Below, piece by piece: positions 15,229-36,279 of a DNA stretch of 64,000 nucleotides (the stretch's first letter is position 1; each line of letters opens with the position of its first letter). Both the position numbers and the translations under genes were made by a program. Location of the stretch: the sequence record PV357171.2; one strand, given 5' to 3'. The notes under the pieces are model-generated. The model ran no database searches. It saw only the letters and a program-made list of their open reading frames with translations, and was not told where the DNA came from. Source of the stretch: a phage.

Positions 15229-16128
15229 ATGTACTACTCTCTAATGAGAGAGTCAAAAGTTATAGTTGAGTATGATGGTAGGGCATTTCATTTTGATGCC
15301 CTATCAAACTATGATATACAGACTTCCTACGAGGAATTCAAGACTCTTCGTAGGACTGTTCATCGTAGAACTAACTATGCAGACTCTATTATAAATGCTC
15401 AAACCCCCTCTTCTATCTCTCTAGCAGTAAATTTCAGTAATACTCTTACTGAGGCTAACTTCTTTGAATGGTTAGGTTTTGATAGAAAAGGTAATACTTT
15501 CTTACTCCCGCTATATAGTAGTAATATTGAACCTATTATGTTCAATATCTATATAGTAAATAAAGATAATAACTGTGTATATTTTGAAAACTGTTATGTA
15601 TCTACAGTAGATTTTTCTTTAGATAAGAACATACCAATTCTTAATGTTGGTATTGAGTCTGGGAAATTCTCAGAAGTATCTACGTATAGAGAAGCAGCTT
15701 CTATTATACAGGGTGAAGTAATGTCTTACAGCCCAGTAATAGCTTCTACTAATGGCAGCATCTTACCCGGTCTTATTTCTGCCTCTTTATCTTTCCAGCA
15801 GCAGTGCTCCTGGAGAGAGGATAAGAGTGTTTTTGATATAAATAAAATTTATAATAATAAAAGAGCCTATGTAACTGAAATGAATGCTTCGGCAACCATT
15901 TCTCTGTACTACTTAAAACGTTTTGCAGGAGATATGGTTTATAATATAGAACCGGAGACAGATGTACCTTTAATGATAAGAAATAATAATATTTCTATAG
16001 ATTTTCCTTCAGCACGTATTACAAAACGCCTAGAGTTCTCAGATGTGTATAGAGTTGAGTGGGATATTATACCTATTGCTTCTTCAGACCCAGTGAGAAT
16101 AGATTTCTTTGGAGAAATTAAAAAATGA
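15229..16128 (+). CDS. tail tip collar protein (p140-like)
   Basis: 299 aa; synteny between tube and tape measure. Confidence 0.4.
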   Translation: MYYSLMRESKVIVEYDGRAFHFDALSNYDIQTSYEEFKTLRRTVHRRTNYADSIINAQTPSSISLAVNFSNTLTEANFFEWLGFDRKGNTFLLPLYSSNIEPIMFNIYIVNKDNNCVYFENCYVSTVDFSLDKNIPILNVGIESGKFSEVSTYREAASIIQGEVMSYSPVIASTNGSILPGLISASLSFQQQCSWREDKSVFDINKIYNNKRAYVTEMNASATISLYYLKRFAGDMVYNIEPETDVPLMIRNNNISIDFPSARITKRLEFSDVYRVEWDIIPIASSDPVRIDFFGEIKK

Positions 16129-16529
16129 TTAATTTAAAAGATATTACTCTTGATACTCGTACTATTACTCTTTCCTACCCAGGTATGCCGAACTTTAAAC
16201 TAGAACTTAACTATATGTCTCGTGCTACCTCTAAACGTGTTATTTCTTCTGCTAAACGCGATGAATGGGTTAATGGTACTTTGGTTCAGGTACAGGATGA
16301 TGATAAGTTCATTGAAGCCTTTGTTGACGCAGCTATTAAAGGTTGGACTGGTTTGACTGTAGGTGACGTTGAAAAACTGATGCTGATTGAAACAGACGCT
16401 GATCCTGCTACTGAAGTTCCATTTAGTCGTGATAATGCTGTAATGCTTATGCAGAACTCTGCTGCGTTTGATTCTTGGATCAACCAGACAGTGTTCCATT
16501 TAGACACTTTTCGTAGCTCAAAAGCGTAA
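16125..16529 (+). CDS. putative tail assembly chaperone (G-like)
   Basis: 134 aa immediately upstream of tape measure region; SD GGAG. Confidence 0.4.
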   Translation: MINLKDITLDTRTITLSYPGMPNFKLELNYMSRATSKRVISSAKRDEWVNGTLVQVQDDDKFIEAFVDAAIKGWTGLTVGDVEKLMLIETDADPATEVPFSRDNAVMLMQNSAAFDSWINQTVFHLDTFRSSKA

Positions 16530-16959
16530 AGAATTACTAGATGCTGTTGCTGACTTTGCTGATAAATGTATTAAAAGCTCAGCATCTAAAATGACTAAAC
16601 AACAATATTTAATACTTTGTGAATCAATGGGTATAGAACCTGATCCTAAGGCTATGCCTGTTGAACTTGAAGACTTTCCACCTATTGTAGCTATTAGTAT
16701 GAATATTTATAATAGTCTAGTTGACTGTTTCATACCTGGCGACTTTCCTATATTTATAGGTAAAGACAAGGCTGCTTTAGGTGTTTTATTCGATATTTAT
16801 GGGATTACTGATCCCATAGAAAAAGAATTTGTTCTACACATTATCAATATATTTGATTCTAAAGCTGTAGACGCTGCACGTAAACGTGCTGAGAAGCATA
16901 AGCCGCAAAACGGTAGAATACCTAACGTTAAGCCACATGCTAAATCTCGAGCACGGTAA
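16504..16959 (+). CDS. putative tail assembly chaperone extension (T-like), +1 frame; track ORF 16591..16959
   Basis: Frame open from 16504, overlaps end of upstream ORF by ~25 nt; no SD before ATG 16591. Confidence 0.35.
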   Translation, partial: TLFVAQKRKELLDAVADFADKCIKSSASKMTKQQYLILCESMGIEPDPKAMPVELEDFPPIVAISMNIYNSLVDCFIPGDFPIFIGKDKAALGVLFDIYGITDPIEKEFVLHIINIFDSKAVDAARKRAEKHKPQNGRIPNVKPHAKSRAR

Positions 16960-16994: not shown

Positions 16995-17027
16995 GGCTCT
17001 GGGTGATTTGCCCAGAGCCTTTTTTAT
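16995..17027 (+). terminator. stem-loop plus T-tract before tape measure gene
   Basis: GGCTCTGGG...CCCAGAGCC then TTTTTTATTGGGAAAAATAAA. Confidence 0.7.
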
Positions 17028-17042
17028 TGGGAAAAATAAAAT

Positions 17043-20000
17043 ATGACTGATAAGCTAATACGAGAATTACTAATAGACGTTAAACAGAAGGGGGCAACCC
17101 GTACTGCAAAGTCTATTGAAAACGTATCTGATGCATTAGAGAACGCTGCTGCTGCTTCTGAACTAACAAATGAACAGTTAGGTAAAATGCCCAAAACTCT
17201 ATACTCCATTGAGAGGGCAGCAGATAGAGCAGCGAAAAGTCTTACTAAAATGCAAGCTAGCAGAGGTATGCTTAGTATTACTAAATCTATTAATGATATA
17301 GGAGCTAAGTTAGATGATCTCGCTATTACAATGATTGAAGTAGCAGATAAATTAGAAATCGGATTTGATGGAGTTTCTAGATCTGTTAAAACAATGGGCA
17401 ATGATGTTGCAGCTGCAACAGAGAAAGTTCAAGATAGGCTGTATGATACTAATAGAGCCTTAGGTGGTACAGCTAGAGGTTTTAATGATACTACTGGTGC
17501 CGCTGGTAGAGCTTCTAGAGCTATCGGTAATACCTCTGGCTCAGCACGCGGTGCAACTCGTGATTTCGCGGCAATGGCTAAGATAGGGGGTGGTTTACCT
17601 ATCCTGTATGCTGCAATTGCATCTAATATATTTGTTCTTCAGTCCGCTTTTGAGGGCCTAAAAGTAGGTGATCAATTAAACAGACTGGAACATTTTGGCA
17701 CTATCGTTGGGACTATAACGGGTACACCAGTACAGACGTTAGCTCTGGCACTACAAAACGCTACTAACGGTGCTGTATCCTTTGAAGAAGCTATGAGACA
17801 AGCGTCTTCTGCTTCAGCTTATGGATTTGATAGTAAACAATTAGAACAGTTCGGACTAGTAGCCCGTCGTGCTGCTGCTGTTCTTGGTGTTGACATGACC
17901 GACGCACTTAACCGTGTAATTAAAGGCGTATCTAAGCAAGAAATAGAACTTCTAGACGAACTTGGTGTTACTATTCGCCTTAACGATGCGTATGCAAATT
18001 ATGTTAAACAGCTAAATGCTACCAGTACAGGCATTAAATATACTGTAGATAGCCTGACTACCTACCAGAGACAACAAGCATATGCAAATGAAGTTATAGC
18101 AGAATCTACTAGACGTTTCGGATACCTAGATGATGCTCTTAAGTCAACTTCTTGGGAGCTATTTGCTGCTAATGCTAACTCTGCCCTAAGAAGCCTACAA
18201 CAAAGCGCAGCAACATACTTAACCCCTGTTGTAGACACCATCAATGCTTTCTTATATCAAACTAAATCTTCTCAGATGAGGATTTCCGCAATGGCACGCA
18301 GTGCCTCTGCTAAAACCACTCCTACTGAAAATGTTACGGCTCTCATAGAAAACGCTGTAGGTGCACAAGAAGATCTAGATACTTACCTTAAAGAAAGTGA
18401 TGCTCGTGTTAAGAAAGCTCAAGAGATTAAACAGCAGTTAGATGATCTCAAGGCAAAACAAGCTGTTACTGCTCCAGTAGCTAACGCACTTACTGCTGTG
18501 GGCATTGGAGGCGATGAAAGTAATAAATTAGTAGTACAACTTACTAATGAACTGGCTCGTCAAAACCAAGAAATAGCAGAACGCGCTAAAACCGAAAAAG
18601 TTCTCAAACAAGCAGTGGAAGATACTGGGCAAGCCTTACTGCGTAATAGTAATCTAGCTAAGCAATTAGGAGCCAATATGCAGTATGCTGCCACTGCTAT
18701 TCCTGGAGAGACCGGGGTATTTAAGATTGATCCTAATAATCTTAAAGCGGCTGCAGAGGTACAGAAGAACTATGACCAGCTAAAGAAAAGCTCTAGTGAT
18801 ACTGCAAATAATATAAAAATGGCAGCTACTAACATTACCACTGCCAAAAAAGCATCAGGTGACTTAGTTAGCATTATAAAAGCAGTAGGAGATACTGCTA
18901 AGGTAACAGGGCAAAATACAGATACTCTAGTTAAAAATCTGAATCTAGGCTTTGAAAATCTAGATCAAATGAAGGCTGCGCAGAAAGGTCTATCAGAATA
19001 TGTAACTGCTATGGATAAGAATGAGCAGAATGCACTGGAAGTAGCTAAACGTAAAGACGAGGTTTATAACCAGACTAAAGACAAAGCTAAAGCGGAGGCA
19101 GCAGCTAGAGAGGTGCTACTACGTCAGCAACAGGAACAGCTCACAGCAGCAAAAGCACTACTGGCTGTTAATCCAAACGATCCAGAGGCTCTAAAGCAGG
19201 TAGCTAAGATAGAAACAGAGATTCTTAATACTAAAGCTCAGGGATTTGAGAACGCTAAGAAAACTAAAGATCTGACAGATAAAATTCTTGGTGTAGATCG
19301 TGAGATAGCTCTCCTGAATGACCGCACTATGACGAGTACTCAGTATCGTCTAGCACAATTAAGGCTAGAGCTACAATTAGAGCAGGAAAAAACGGAATTA
19401 TATTCTAAACAAGCGGATGGCCAAGCTAAAGCAGAACAGTCTAGACGTGCCCAAGCACAAATAAGTAGAGAACTGTGGGAAGCAGAGAAACAAGCTACTG
19501 CCTCGCATGTGTCAGCTCTCATGGATGCCTTAGAAGTTAACCAAACTCAGAGAAATGTCACTGGTCAATCCCAGATTCTTACTGAAAGGTTATCCATTCT
19601 GCAACAACAGCTGGAGTTGTCTAAAGGTAATACTGAAGAAGAAATTAAATATCGTAATGAGATTTATAAAACTTCAGCAGCCTTAGAACAGCTTAAAAAG
19701 CAAAGAGAGAGTCAGATGCAGCAACAGGTAGGATCTTCATTAGGTGCTGTGTACACTCCTACAACTGGTCTATCTGGGGCAGATAAAGATTTTGCTGATA
19801 TGCAGAATAAGATGGCTTCTTATGACCAGGCTATTTCTAAGCTGTCTGAGTTAAATTCCGAAGCAACAGCTGTAGGTCAAAGCCTTGGTAATTTAACTAA
19901 TGCTATGATTCATTTCTCACGGGGATCTCTAGATACTACGTCTATGATTGCGGCAGGTATGCAAGCTGTATCTTCCGTAATTCAGTATAGTACTAGCCAG

Positions 20001-20702
20001 CAGGTAAGTGCTATTGATGCAGCTATTGCAGCAGAGCAAAAACGTGATGGTAAATCCGAGGAGTCTAAAGCTAAACTCAAGAAACTGGAAGCGGAAAAGG
20101 TTAAGATCCAGCAGGATGCAGCTAAGAAGCAAATCATTATTCAGACGGCAGTAGCAGTAATGCAAGCGGCAACAGCTGTACCATACCCGTTCTCTATTCC
20201 TTTGATGGTGGCGGCAGGTTTGGCAGGTGCGTTGTCTCTTGCTCAAGCATCTTCTGCATCGAGTATGTCAAGTATTGCTGATTCTGGAGCGGATACAACA
20301 AGTTATTTAACCTTAGGAGAGCGTCAAAAGAATATAGATGTGTCCATGTCTGCTAATGCAGGTGAACTATCTTATATCCGAGGCGATAAAGGAATAGGCG
20401 GTGCTAACTCTTTCGTTCCTCGTGCTGAGGGTGGTAATATGTACCCAGGGGTTAGTTACCAAATGGGTGAACATGGTACAGAAGTAGTTACCCCTATGGT
20501 TCCTATGAAAGCTACACCTAATGATGAGCTAAAAACCTCATCTAACTCAACTTCAGGAAGACCTATCATCTTGAATATTAGTGCTATGGATGCTGCAAGT
20601 TTCAGAGAGTTTGCTTCTAGTAATAGTAGTGCTCTAAGAGACGCAGTAGAATTAGCTCTGAATGAGAACGGTGCTAGTCTGAAAACATTAGGAAATTCTT
20701 AA
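17043..20702 (+). CDS. tail tape measure protein (pb2-like)
   Basis: 1219 aa, long coiled-coil/Ala-rich, C-terminal hydrophobic segment and peptidase-like end. Confidence 0.85.
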   Translation: MTDKLIRELLIDVKQKGATRTAKSIENVSDALENAAAASELTNEQLGKMPKTLYSIERAADRAAKSLTKMQASRGMLSITKSINDIGAKLDDLAITMIEVADKLEIGFDGVSRSVKTMGNDVAAATEKVQDRLYDTNRALGGTARGFNDTTGAAGRASRAIGNTSGSARGATRDFAAMAKIGGGLPILYAAIASNIFVLQSAFEGLKVGDQLNRLEHFGTIVGTITGTPVQTLALALQNATNGAVSFEEAMRQASSASAYGFDSKQLEQFGLVARRAAAVLGVDMTDALNRVIKGVSKQEIELLDELGVTIRLNDAYANYVKQLNATSTGIKYTVDSLTTYQRQQAYANEVIAESTRRFGYLDDALKSTSWELFAANANSALRSLQQSAATYLTPVVDTINAFLYQTKSSQMRISAMARSASAKTTPTENVTALIENAVGAQEDLDTYLKESDARVKKAQEIKQQLDDLKAKQAVTAPVANALTAVGIGGDESNKLVVQLTNELARQNQEIAERAKTEKVLKQAVEDTGQALLRNSNLAKQLGANMQYAATAIPGETGVFKIDPNNLKAAAEVQKNYDQLKKSSSDTANNIKMAATNITTAKKASGDLVSIIKAVGDTAKVTGQNTDTLVKNLNLGFENLDQMKAAQKGLSEYVTAMDKNEQNALEVAKRKDEVYNQTKDKAKAEAAAREVLLRQQQEQLTAAKALLAVNPNDPEALKQVAKIETEILNTKAQGFENAKKTKDLTDKILGVDREIALLNDRTMTSTQYRLAQLRLELQLEQEKTELYSKQADGQAKAEQSRRAQAQISRELWEAEKQATASHVSALMDALEVNQTQRNVTGQSQILTERLSILQQQLELSKGNTEEEIKYRNEIYKTSAALEQLKKQRESQMQQQVGSSLGAVYTPTTGLSGADKDFADMQNKMASYDQAISKLSELNSEATAVGQSLGNLTNAMIHFSRGSLDTTSMIAAGMQAVSSVIQYSTSQQVSAIDAAIAAEQKRDGKSEESKAKLKKLEAEKVKIQQDAAKKQIIIQTAVAVMQAATAVPYPFSIPLMVAAGLAGALSLAQASSASSMSSIADSGADTTSYLTLGERQKNIDVSMSANAGELSYIRGDKGIGGANSFVPRAEGGNMYPGVSYQMGEHGTEVVTPMVPMKATPNDELKTSSNSTSGRPIILNISAMDAASFREFASSNSSALRDAVELALNENGASLKTLGNS

Positions 20703-26332: not shown

Positions 26333-26755
26333 ATGAGTACTGAAAATAGAGTTATAGACTTAGTAATAGATGAGAAAGTACCATATGGTTTAATGATGCA
26401 GTTCTTAGATGTTGATGATAGTACTTATCCACCTACAAGTACCCCTGTTAACTTAACTGGGTATTCTCTAAGGGGTACTATAAAAAATAGCCTAGATGAG
26501 AATGCGGAGATATTGGCATCCTTTACTACTAATATTATTGATGCTGCTCAAGGGGCTGTAGCTATAAGTTTACCAGTAGAATCTGTGGAGAATATAGGAG
26601 CTAAAGCATCTAAAGATAGAGATAAATATAATCCTCGTCAGCGATTCGCAGGATACTATGATATAATTATGACTAGAGATGTTATAGGATCTGCAATTAG
26701 CTCCTTTCGTATAATGGAGGGTAAAGTATTTATCAGTGATGGGGTAACTAAATAA
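26333..26755 (+). CDS. collar protein (p132-like)
   Basis: 140 aa; synteny before L-shaped fibre gene. Confidence 0.5.
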
Positions 26756-33482: not shown

Positions 33483-35321
33483 TTATTCTAAGTAGGAAAA
33501 TCCTTCTGCATCTTTTTTGACAGTAATCTTATGGGCTAATGGATGCGTATGCCCATGAGAAACAATGATAGAATTCAGACTATCTTCCTCATTTAATAAT
33601 TCAACGAGAGTATCAAGTCCTTTCGTATCAATAAAGCTAATAACTTCGTCAAGGAACAGAAGATTAATATTAACTTTACTAATAGATGTTAACAGCATTC
33701 TAATAGCTAACAGAGTTGCTAGGTTAATTCTACTCTGCTGACCAGTAGAGCAGTTCTCCATGCTGGTACGGTTTCCGTCATTGAAGATTACTACTTGTAA
33801 TTTAGTTTCATCAAGTTCAAATCCAAGTGCGAACTTACCACCAGTCATAATAGAAAGATATTTATTAATCAATTCCTCAAATACTTTCACACTATGTTCT
33901 AGTTTATATCCTACCAGATTTTTCAATGCAGCGATCAGAATATCAAGATCAGCAACAGCTTCTGATACTCCATCCAGTTTGGACGTTATCTCAGACATTT
34001 CTGCCTCAGCTTTCTCAATCTGTTCTAATTTCGCTTTATATTTTGCATTGGCTAATTCGACATTTGCATTATGCTCTTTGGCAATTGCAACTTTAGAACG
34101 TCCATCAGCGATTTCCTGTTCTAATTGTCGGATTTGCACCTGTAGGATTTGCACATTGAGTTCTTCAAAAGAAGCGTCACTCATTGAATTTTTGAACTCG
34201 TCTCTAGCTGCTACTGCCTTATCTAAAGCATCTTTAGCTCTAGTATACACAGTGTACTCGACTTGTTCTTTCTTCAACTGCTCCAATGTAGCTTCAAGAG
34301 ATTGTTTCTCTTTAAACATAGGATCATATTCTGTTCTAGCCATATCCATTGCTTTTTGAGCAGCAGTTGTATCAAGATGCGTACCACAAGTAGGACATTC
34401 AGTATTTGAAGCCTCTTGCTTAAACTTCTGATAACGTTTCTTGACTTCTCCCGCACGTGAGGTAACAATCGTTAAGTCACGCGTAACACTTGAGATCTCT
34501 TCAGATTGGTCAGTGGGCGCAGGCAAATTTTTGAAAGGCTCGAAAGATTGTTCGGCAACTTGTACAGCTTTGTCCAAATTACGCAATTTAGTAATATTAG
34601 CCTCTTGAGACTTGGCTAATGCCGCCTTAATTTTCGATTCAGTAAGTTCTTGCGCTAATGGTTCTTCATCAAACTCGGGCACTTCTACTGGTTCTTGCAA
34701 AGTTCCCAAGTTATTCTTTCCATTAAGGATTTTCGTAATTACAGCCATTTGGCCCTGCAAATTATTTAAGGTATTTGCTATTTCTTTACGGTCAGCCTTA
34801 ATAGTTTCCGACATTTCTTTGTACTGTTCTTGGTTGAACAAGTTAACAAGAAAAGCCTTACGTGTTGCATCTGTTGCTTTTAGAAAGTCTAGATTGGAAC
34901 CCACTGATTGATAAATTAGTTTGGTGAATGTTTGGAAGTCACCGCCCATAATCTCCTCAATCCTCTTGTATGTTTGGGTTGCCGTGTGCCCACTAATATC
35001 TTCCCCATTCTTAATAAGAGTTACTTTAGCAGTTGACTTAACTACTTTATGCAATTCATACTCATCTTCATCTTTTGAGAAGTAAGCGTGCATATCATAC
35101 TCTTTTTTCGGAGAAGACCAAGAGAACAGAGCATCTTTCTTAATACCACGTGAGTTCTTATTATAGAACAGCTCTTCTATAACCGTGGCGATGGTAGATT
35201 TCCCTAGCCCATTGCCACCAATTAGTTGAGTAACTGGATTCTTATCGAAATGAATTACGATGTCCTTACCGTAAGACATAACGTTACTAAATTTTAGTGT
35301 CTTAATTGTAATCTTTGACAT
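33483..35321 (-). CDS. SbcC/Rad50-like ATPase (D13-like); start trimmed to ATG at 35321
   Basis: Walker A GGNGLGKST, long coiled coil, CxxC zinc hook, C-terminal signature/Walker B. Confidence 0.7.
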   Translation of the reverse strand: MSKITIKTLKFSNVMSYGKDIVIHFDKNPVTQLIGGNGLGKSTIATVIEELFYNKNSRGIKKDALFSWSSPKKEYDMHAYFSKDEDEYELHKVVKSTAKVTLIKNGEDISGHTATQTYKRIEEIMGGDFQTFTKLIYQSVGSNLDFLKATDATRKAFLVNLFNQEQYKEMSETIKADRKEIANTLNNLQGQMAVITKILNGKNNLGTLQEPVEVPEFDEEPLAQELTESKIKAALAKSQEANITKLRNLDKAVQVAEQSFEPFKNLPAPTDQSEEISSVTRDLTIVTSRAGEVKKRYQKFKQEASNTECPTCGTHLDTTAAQKAMDMARTEYDPMFKEKQSLEATLEQLKKEQVEYTVYTRAKDALDKAVAARDEFKNSMSDASFEELNVQILQVQIRQLEQEIADGRSKVAIAKEHNANVELANAKYKAKLEQIEKAEAEMSEITSKLDGVSEAVADLDILIAALKNLVGYKLEHSVKVFEELINKYLSIMTGGKFALGFELDETKLQVVIFNDGNRTSMENCSTGQQSRINLATLLAIRMLLTSISKVNINLLFLDEVISFIDTKGLDTLVELLNEEDSLNSIIVSHGHTHPLAHKITVKKDAEGFSYLE

Positions 35322-36279
35322 ATTTCGCAGCTCTAGCCAAGATTCTATCAATGTCGCCTTGAGATAGCTTCTCGACTTCACGAAAGTAAAGTTCAAGTTC
35401 ACCTAGCATATCAAGATCAACAAGATTTAACTTAGCATCTTTAGTAACTCGATGGTTAATCTTCTTATCTAATAAATCAGAGTCTTTGATAGACTTTAAT
35501 TGAACAACGTCACCAGTAACTTCATAGACTACACGATCATAATCACTAGGTTCCATCTCTTCACCAGCTCCGATTGTTTTACGAATCAGTTGTGGCAAAT
35601 CACCAAGTTCAATCCACTCTACTTTTAATGTATCGGTATCAATGATAAAGCAACCATTTGTACCTTTTGTGCGTTCTCTATGGAACGATGTAGTTAATGG
35701 AGACCCTGGGTAGAGGAGTCTAGTAGATCCGATAGTCTGGCTATTAGTATAAGAATGTAAATCGCCAGCAATTACAGTATCATAACAGTTGTACTTAGTT
35801 AGATCAATTTCTGGTTTTACATGTGGAGGGATTTCACCACGAACATGCGTGAAACATAGTTTTGATTCAGATGGTTTCCACTTAGACTTATGGATTTCAT
35901 CATATGGAACAATATCAAATTCAGGGGAACGATATGGTTTGGTAATTACTTCCCACTTACCACTCGTTACTTTATTAATAACTCCTGCATAATGATATAA
36001 ACATGAAATGGTTTTAGTTAACATTTCATGATTTCCAGTAAAGATTTTGCCTGGGTGGTCAAGTCTTGACATGAACTGTTCAAGCAGTTCTATTTCTTCT
36101 GACGACGGGTCGGCAACATCAAGTATATCACCACCAGCAATATGAAGATCACAGTTATGATTATGGAATATATCATTTAACCGTTCTCCTAGCATTAGGA
36201 AGCGACGCTTCTGCCATTCCTTTGGAACTTTATCTTGTCCTAGTTTGATATGATGATCAGCACTAAATAATATTCTCAT
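35302..36279 (-). CDS. SbcD/Mre11-like nuclease (D12-like)
   Basis: Metallophosphatase motifs (SADHH, GDILD, GNHE-like). Confidence 0.75.
   Translation of the reverse strand: MRILFSADHHIKLGQDKVPKEWQKRRFLMLGERLNDIFHNHNCDLHIAGGDILDVADPSSEEIELLEQFMSRLDHPGKIFTGNHEMLTKTISCLYHYAGVINKVTSGKWEVITKPYRSPEFDIVPYDEIHKSKWKPSESKLCFTHVRGEIPPHVKPEIDLTKYNCYDTVIAGDLHSYTNSQTIGSTRLLYPGSPLTTSFHRERTKGTNGCFIIDTDTLKVEWIELGDLPQLIRKTIGAGEEMEPSDYDRVVYEVTGDVVQLKSIKDSDLLDKKINHRVTKDAKLNLVDLDMLGELELYFREVEKLSQGDIDRILARAAKYVKDYN

Follow-up and report, generated by a model that had tools for sequence, protein, structure and literature searches.

We analyzed a 64,000-nucleotide (nt) stretch of phage DNA (sequence record PV357171.2; the whole of it is hereafter called the window), and the subject here is a pair of small open reading frames (ORFs) just upstream of its tape-measure gene: ORF1 (16125..16529, 134 amino acids (aa)) and ORF2 (16591..16959, 122 aa as annotated), homologues of T5.143 and T5.142 of phage T5, respectively. 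Comparison with relatives suggests that ORF1 and ORF2 are a tail-assembly-chaperone pair of the lambda G/GT type, made from one translation start, with a +1 ribosomal frameshift at ACU_UUU_CGU leading from ORF1 into the ORF2 frame; we give this reading a probability of roughly 0.77. ORF1 would be the G-like chaperone produced by standard decoding, and ORF2 would be the T-like C-terminal domain of a fusion. The case belongs to a known class, the chaperone frameshift, in its less common +1 form; it is unannotated in every record inspected and has reportedly gone unrecognized in the T5 family. Features lie on the plus strand unless stated otherwise.

Two-frame organization of the putative chaperone pair in the window and its relatives

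The sequence-only reading of this region had proposed a +1 frameshift on the grounds that ORF1 has a Shine-Dalgarno (SD) sequence, that ORF2 has none, and that the downstream frame is open from 16504 and overlaps the last ~25 nt of ORF1. All of these features are present. An SD sequence, GGAG, can be read at 16111..16114, ahead of the ORF1 ATG at 16125, which itself shares ATGA with the TGA stop of the upstream gene. The sequence ahead of ATG 16591 (gctcagcatctaaaATG) holds no SD-like element. Relative to ORF1, ORF2 lies in the +1 frame (16125 mod 3 = 0; 16591 mod 3 = 1), and a TAG at 16501..16503 shuts this frame on its 5' side, thereby setting the 5' limit for any shift. From 16504 onward the frame is open, sharing 26 nt (16504..16529) with ORF1, and no ATG, GTG, or TTG occurs in it between 16504 and 16591. 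Because a 26 nt overlap in one genome is not significant alone, the weight of the argument rests on its conservation, together with a specific motif, in relatives.

This region of the window is 96-97% identical to Tequintavirus genomes such as phiAPCEc03, SP15, and T5. We compared 173 usable relatives in all, some of them cultured Demerecviridae and the others metagenome contigs, with identities reaching as low as about 25-30%. In every one of the 173, the two parts are in different frames; none is fused and none has both parts in the same frame. When the conceptual fusion was searched by tblastn against 50,697 phage records, 910 records matched, with hosts that included Salmonella, Escherichia, Klebsiella, Vibrio, Proteus, Aeromonas, Pectobacterium, and others, and the phages were Demerecviridae wherever taxonomy was shown. 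Among the matches listed, all 59 records spanning both parts aligned as two pieces, i.e., in two frames. The junction itself was inspected in 11 usable divergent cultured lineages (T5, Epseptimavirus S114, Sugarland, Uniso31, Pantoea AAS21, Enterobacter KKP_3711, and Vibrio ValDsh2, VCPH, Rocket24, D261b, and PVo5), whose identity to the window falls as low as about 25-30%; the Proteus and Pectobacterium relatives and most of those from Aeromonas lie outside this sample. ORF2 is at +1 in 11/11 of these lineages.

Uncultured relatives were drawn from two IMG/VR scans with alignments of conceptual fusions, which returned 160 loci. The first batch of 92 usable loci was split evenly, with ORF2 at +1 in 46, at -1 in 46, and in-frame in 0. 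All 79 loci of the second batch were out of frame with an overlap, and none was fused. Aeromonas phage AhSzw-1 (locus L010, NC_047950.1 94346-95911) was left out because it has stops in all frames. Its region contains no open frame of at least 90 codons and no annotated gene, and tblastn still detects both parts there; the broken frames likely come from uncorrected indel errors in the assembly.

The -1 relatives share with the window homologous proteins (about 30-40% identity), the same junction position, and a colinear linker, but differ in that their ORF2 lies in the -1 frame with A_AAU_UUU or G_GGA_AAC. At all 46 first-batch -1 loci, one of these in-phase X_XXY_YYZ heptamers (A_AAT_TTT or G_GGA_AAC) sits at the homologous ..(E/G)-N-F.. 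position, and a further 32/32 distinct overlaps from the second batch have A_AAT_TTT. Fusions built by all three recoding solutions are colinear across the junction and the linker with no indel, and the -1 clades are nested within +1 lineages on a neighbor-joining tree. Together, the colinear fusions and the tree indicate that one protein family retained its single start and its two frames even as the shift changed direction, a pattern that, at the level of sequence comparison, is the signature of a conserved chaperone frameshift. The -1 clade (loci L036-L092 and L095-L174) is large and uncultured, with T5-like tail modules, and comes mostly from aquatic metagenomes by sample numbering; there was no cultured phage of the -1 class among the 50,697 phage records.

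Profile matches also join the two ORFs. ORF1 matched phrog_313, "Tail assembly chaperone" (258 positions), at positions 12-141 (E = 6e-34). ORF2 matched phrog_3914 (E = 1e-56), and the +1-frame ORF also matched phrog_313 at positions 170-258. The conceptual fusion matched phrog_313 in a single continuous stretch, positions 12-258 (E = 4e-54). The name "tail assembly chaperone" of PHROG 313 and 3914 is an annotation rather than a tested function; T5.143 and T5.142 bear the same name in RefSeq. Neither ORF had a Pfam or NCBIfam match, a profile search of PDB sequences gave nothing meaningful, and no similarity of ORF1 or ORF2 to lambda G or T was detected by sequence. A single-sequence AlphaFold model of ORF1 was unusable (pLDDT 35). 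A search of the fusion against a collection of 5.8 billion proteins gave no match at E ≤ 0.001 (661 word-sharing candidates), the family seemingly being either absent from or unreachable in that index; despite this empty result, GenBank holds hundreds of near-identical phage proteins. Overall, the conserved frames, the shared motif, the linker that evolves as coding sequence, and the PHROG matches support the proposal of a +1 frameshift joining two chaperone-like ORFs.

The proposed shift-site motif, the linker, and the predicted products

The sequence-only reading had suggested comparing the overlap across relatives for a conserved slippery motif and had not located a site. This comparison was positive: every +1 lineage has an in-phase N_TTT_CG(T/A) within the overlap, which in the window is ACT_TTT_CGT at 16506..16514. 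From this comparison, we would place the shift at TTT_CGT, 16509..16514, within a proposed site ACU_UUU_CGU_A (16506..16515) that has UUU (16509..16511) in the ribosomal peptidyl (P) site and CGU (16512..16514) in the aminoacyl (A) site. The entire overlap of Vibrio phage D261b is AAC AAC TTT CGT TAA, so any shift there is confined to the four codons that hold the motif. ACT TTT CGT AGC is invariant in the 26 unique close relatives compared, against variation at 69% of the third positions of ORF1. Beyond Phe-Arg, ORF1 ends in a short, variable tail of 0 to about 19 residues among relatives; in the cultured lineages the ends read R*, RS*, RG*, RK*, RN*, RTK*, RSSKA*, and RDSKQEPTA*.

Codon choice at the site is restricted as well. 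The Phe codon is TTT in all +1 lineages, and TTT makes up 58% of the Phe codons in the long ORFs of the window; TTC also occurs at G_GGA_AAC loci, where the Phe codon falls outside the slippery sequence. The Arg codon is always CGT or CGA and never AGA or AGG, with AGA accounting for 32% of the Arg codons of the window. Within window ORFs of at least 150 aa, in-frame TTT_CGN was observed 5 times against 11.3 expected from codon frequencies, and TTC_CGN was not depleted (10 observed, about 8 expected). The numbers are small, and the depletion is consistent with avoidance of a shift-prone sequence. Only the TTT_CGN copy at 16509 opens a long +1 ORF on the plus strand.

On the minus strand at 35385, TAC_TTT_CGT occurs in a 325-aa ORF (36279..35302), 27 codons ahead of its stop, and the +1 frame continues for 632 codons via an overlapping downstream gene with its own ATG near 35320; this is probably an ordinary overlapping gene pair. 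On the plus strand at 26702..26710, the exact influenza motif TCC_TTT_CGT occurs in a 140-aa tail-region ORF (26333..26755), 16 codons short of its stop. The +1 frame there shuts after one codon, so a shift would merely truncate the protein, and the motif is probably there by chance.

Between the site and ORF2 lies a linker (16513..16590, VAQKRKELLDAVADFADKCIKSSASK) that is open in the +1 frame only, lacks any start codon, and carries an intergenic annotation from 16530 on. We counted variable sites by codon position (1:2:3) in the 26 unique close relatives. The counts were 26:4:88 in the ORF1 body (ORF1 frame), 18:12:70 in the ORF2 body (+1 frame), and 5:1:15 in the linker at 16530..16590 (+1 frame; chi-square about 15, 2 degrees of freedom). 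The linker thus has a third-position bias like that of both ORF bodies. In the part of the overlap 3' of the motif, only one site varies; the change is silent in the +1 frame and replaces Ser by Pro in the ORF1 frame. At the protein level, the linker is recognizable from T5 to Sugarland, AAS21, and beyond, down to about 30% identity.

The annotated start of ORF2 is less constant. In an alignment of 71 distinct homologues, the column of Met-16591 holds M 38 times, I 16 times, L 7 times, V 6 times, and F 4 times, with no M at all in the A_AAT_TTT clade; the first codon at which ORF2 could start lies at widely differing places among relatives. Judged from these alignments, Met-16591 occupies a hydrophobic position and is not a conserved start. 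A hairpin with 9-bp arms (16538..16588; TAGATGCTG at 16538..16546 and CAGCATCTA at 16580..16588) stops 2 nt short of AUG 16591, with a fold z-score of -2.2. An alifold alignment of 22 T5/Epseptimavirus sequences contained one G-U change and one double compensatory change in it. The hairpin is limited to the T5/Epseptimavirus group and absent from other lineages, and at 24 nt from the shift site it is too far for a typical stimulator; its effect might be to hold down internal initiation at ORF2 and not to promote the shift.

We infer that a shift does occur, in the +1 rather than the -2 direction and at low efficiency, and that it would proceed as follows. Most ribosomes would read ORF1 to its stop and yield the 134-aa protein. 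A minority would slip at ACU_UUU_CGU, where peptidyl-tRNA-Phe on UUU would re-pair with UUC (16510..16512) in a fully Watson-Crick fashion. The next codon would be GUA (16513..16515), then GCU CAA and so on, with the +1 frame being read until the stop at 16957..16959. The predicted fusion is 277 aa long and would comprise ORF1 residues 1-129 followed by 148 residues (VAQKRKELL...) that include the entire T5.142 domain. A +1 shift at UUU_C predicts the junction tryptic peptide DNAVMLMQNSAAFDSWINQTVFHLDTFVAQK (...HLDTFVAQK). By analogy with lambda, the N-terminal part common to both products would coat the tape-measure protein, and the C-terminal domain would recruit the tail-tube protein.

Alternative explanations

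Several observations weigh against the frameshift. The +1-class lineages have a common ancestry and are not fully independent observations. The conservation of Phe-Arg could come partly from protein constraint. CGT is the commonest Arg codon in the long ORFs of the window (42%), and with CGU common in both the phage and E. coli (20.2 per 1000 in the latter; PMC3498833), a "slow A-site codon" stimulus for a +1 shift is not evident. Neither an upstream SD-like stimulator nor a conserved downstream RNA structure was found in 18 lineages. A genome announcement states that there is no predicted frameshift signal in T5 and Sugarland (PMC6256483), and ATG 16591 is invariant within the T5/Epseptimavirus group. 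Furthermore, in a 2026 study that expressed T5.142 from the ATG of its annotation, this protein was identified as what triggers the Schlafen nuclease RorSlfn5 (PMC13056530). T5.142 alone is folded, stable, and active as a defense trigger, and a free-standing ORF2 product is therefore viable.

The invariant ATG, the activity of T5.142 by itself, the published statement on T5 and Sugarland, and the two separate coding sequences (CDSs) in all GenBank/RefSeq records inspected would all fit two separate proteins made with no recoding, ORF2 being translated from ATG 16591 by weak internal initiation or by re-initiation after 16529. We consider this unlikely. ATG 16591 has no SD and is abutted by the hairpin, many relatives have I, L, F, or V in its place, and the 61 nt ahead of it evolve as +1-frame coding sequence whose protein product is conserved to about 30% identity. 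Independent initiation also leaves unexplained why the frame is always open back into ORF1 across a fixed motif. Initiation at ATG 16591 may nevertheless coexist with the shift in the T5 group.

A frameshift by another route seems slightly less probable still. Both a -2 slip at the same U-run, which would give ...TFFVAQK with one extra Phe, and a +1 slip of tRNA-Lys on AAA_G (16521..16524; ...RSSKKRK...) reach the ORF2 frame; a -2 shift is documented for the chaperone pair of phage Mu (PMC5009743), and AAA_G lies inside the window overlap just ahead of the ORF1 stop. However, the overlaps of AAS21, the Vibrio phages, KKP_3711, and the metagenome +1 clade have no AAA_G, whereas TTT_CGN is present throughout, and we rejected AAA_G as the shift site because it is confined to the T5 group and not conserved. 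For the -2 slip, re-pairing of tRNA-Phe on NCU/NAU-type triplets would be poor in AAC_UUU contexts, and the same motif in influenza gives +1, not -2, by mass spectrometry (PMC3498833). Least probable of all, and in our view very improbable, is a non-canonical start within 16504..16590 or RNA-polymerase slippage on the T-run. Sugarland does have a GTG right after the site, and the AAS21 gene is annotated from a TTG in the overlap, but such starts lack both conservation and an SD. At only 3-4 nt (in many relatives the sequence reads AAC TTT CG), the T-run is far shorter than the runs known to allow transcriptional slippage, and we rejected that route on this ground.

Gene order, known frameshift systems, and meaning for the T5 family

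The +1 shift at ACU_UUU_CGU would take place within a conserved tail-gene neighborhood. The order is a 465-aa tube-like ORF, a p140-like gene (15229..16128, 299 aa; PF23779 Baseplate_Tube_p140, E = 2e-139), ORF1, ORF2, an intrinsic-terminator-like hairpin (16995..17019) followed by a T-run (16995..17029 in all), and the tape-measure gene (17043..20702; a pb2 homologue of 1219 aa and the expected chaperone client), and it is the same in the relatives inspected. The window and T5 alike have a terminator-like hairpin that separates the chaperone pair from the tape-measure gene, and the T5 counterpart is annotated as a terminator. In T5, the endonuclease gene T5.141 follows the terminator downstream of T5.142 (locus L003, 1272..1632); in the window, the tape-measure gene begins directly at 17043.

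The lambda gpG/gpGT system and the conserved chaperone frameshift of long-tailed phages are said to have been described by Levin in 1993 and by Xu, Hendrix, and Duda in 2004. Like lambda, the window has two small ORFs just upstream of the tape-measure gene, the second overlapping the 3' end of the first in another frame; the second ORF is without a conserved start of its own, and a short product and an N-terminally coincident long one are predicted. In both, the arrangement is conserved independently of sequence similarity. The window differs from lambda in that the shift would be +1, not -1, with no X_XXY_YYZ in the overlap, and in that the p140-like gene stands between the tube gene and the chaperone pair. 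Lambda makes about 30 G per GT, and the chaperone pairs of different phages use -1, -2, or +1 shifts (PMC5009743). In SEA-PHAGES genomes, 350 forward and 2368 backward chaperone frameshift sites are annotated (PMC10885494). The +1 shifts of actinobacteriophages and the predicted +1 of the haloarchaeal virus HSTV-2 make +1 an accepted category (PMC10885494; PMC5009743); those cases come from other phage groups and hosts, and we did not find UUU_CGN described as their motif.

The closest match to the site itself comes from eukaryotic viruses. Influenza A virus makes PA-X at UUU_CGN, by a +1 shift established by mass spectrometry at an efficiency of about 1%. In the favored model, P-site tRNA-Phe leaves UUU for UUC, with which it is better matched, and PA-X has no known stimulatory structure (PMC3498833). 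UUU_CGN is also the predicted +1 site of amalgaviruses (Nibert 2016, PMC5052127). These systems and the window have an identical in-phase UUU_CGN core, with the P site occupied by UUU and with the same proposed re-pairing of tRNA-Phe to UUC. With no evident stimulatory structure in either PA-X or the window, a low efficiency is to be expected, which would suit a G/GT-type system. Unlike PA-X, the window system is bacterial, its CGU codon is abundant rather than rare, the exit (E)-site codon in the phages is ACU, AAC, AAU, ACC, ACG, or UAC rather than UCC, and the A site holds only CGU or CGA. The site also differs from prfB-type +1 shifting, in which CUU_UGA places a stop codon in the A site with an SD-like stimulator 3 nt upstream; here the A site holds CGU, and the upstream sequence (GTGTTCCATTTAGACACT) has no SD-like element.

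In records of the relatives inspected, no joined CDS is annotated, and our literature searches on frameshifting and the chaperones in T5, Tequintavirus, and Demerecviridae found nothing relevant. The RorSlfn5 study mentions neither T5.143 nor a frameshift; it reports the escape mutations D18G, D68G, and I72T in T5.142 (PMC13056530), positions that would correspond to 173, 223, and 227 in the fusion.

T5 serves as a model siphophage, with intensive study of how its tail is built and assembled, and its chaperone pair is annotated as independent genes in the records inspected. Recognizing the fusion would correct the annotation of > 900 genomes and would give work on T5 tail assembly the correct protein, a 277-aa G-T fusion. 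It would also bear on T5.142 as the trigger of a bacterial Schlafen nuclease: if the broader view set out below is true, the protein that RorSlfn5 senses during infection would mainly be the C-terminal domain of the T5.143-T5.142 fusion, not free T5.142. The pair would serve as a clean natural case of a single protein family that has moved between -1 and +1 frameshifting without a change in the position of the shift, and its +1 motif is shared with eukaryotic RNA viruses. It would also provide a tractable bacterial system for asking why PAX-like +1 sites favor CGN in the A site, a preference whose reason is unknown and in which the role of the A-site codon is uncertain (Firth 2012, PMC3498833). 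Given that CGU is the commonest Arg codon in the phage and abundant in E. coli, the phages point to a reason other than codon rarity. We lean toward a broader view, with less confidence than in the frameshift itself, in which UUU_CGN is intrinsically prone to +1 shifting on bacterial and eukaryotic ribosomes regardless of codon rarity. The T5 family (Demerecviridae, > 900 sequenced genomes) would then have long used it to set the ratio of its two tail chaperones, and sister lineages would have arrived at this outcome by way of -1 heptamers placed at that same codon.

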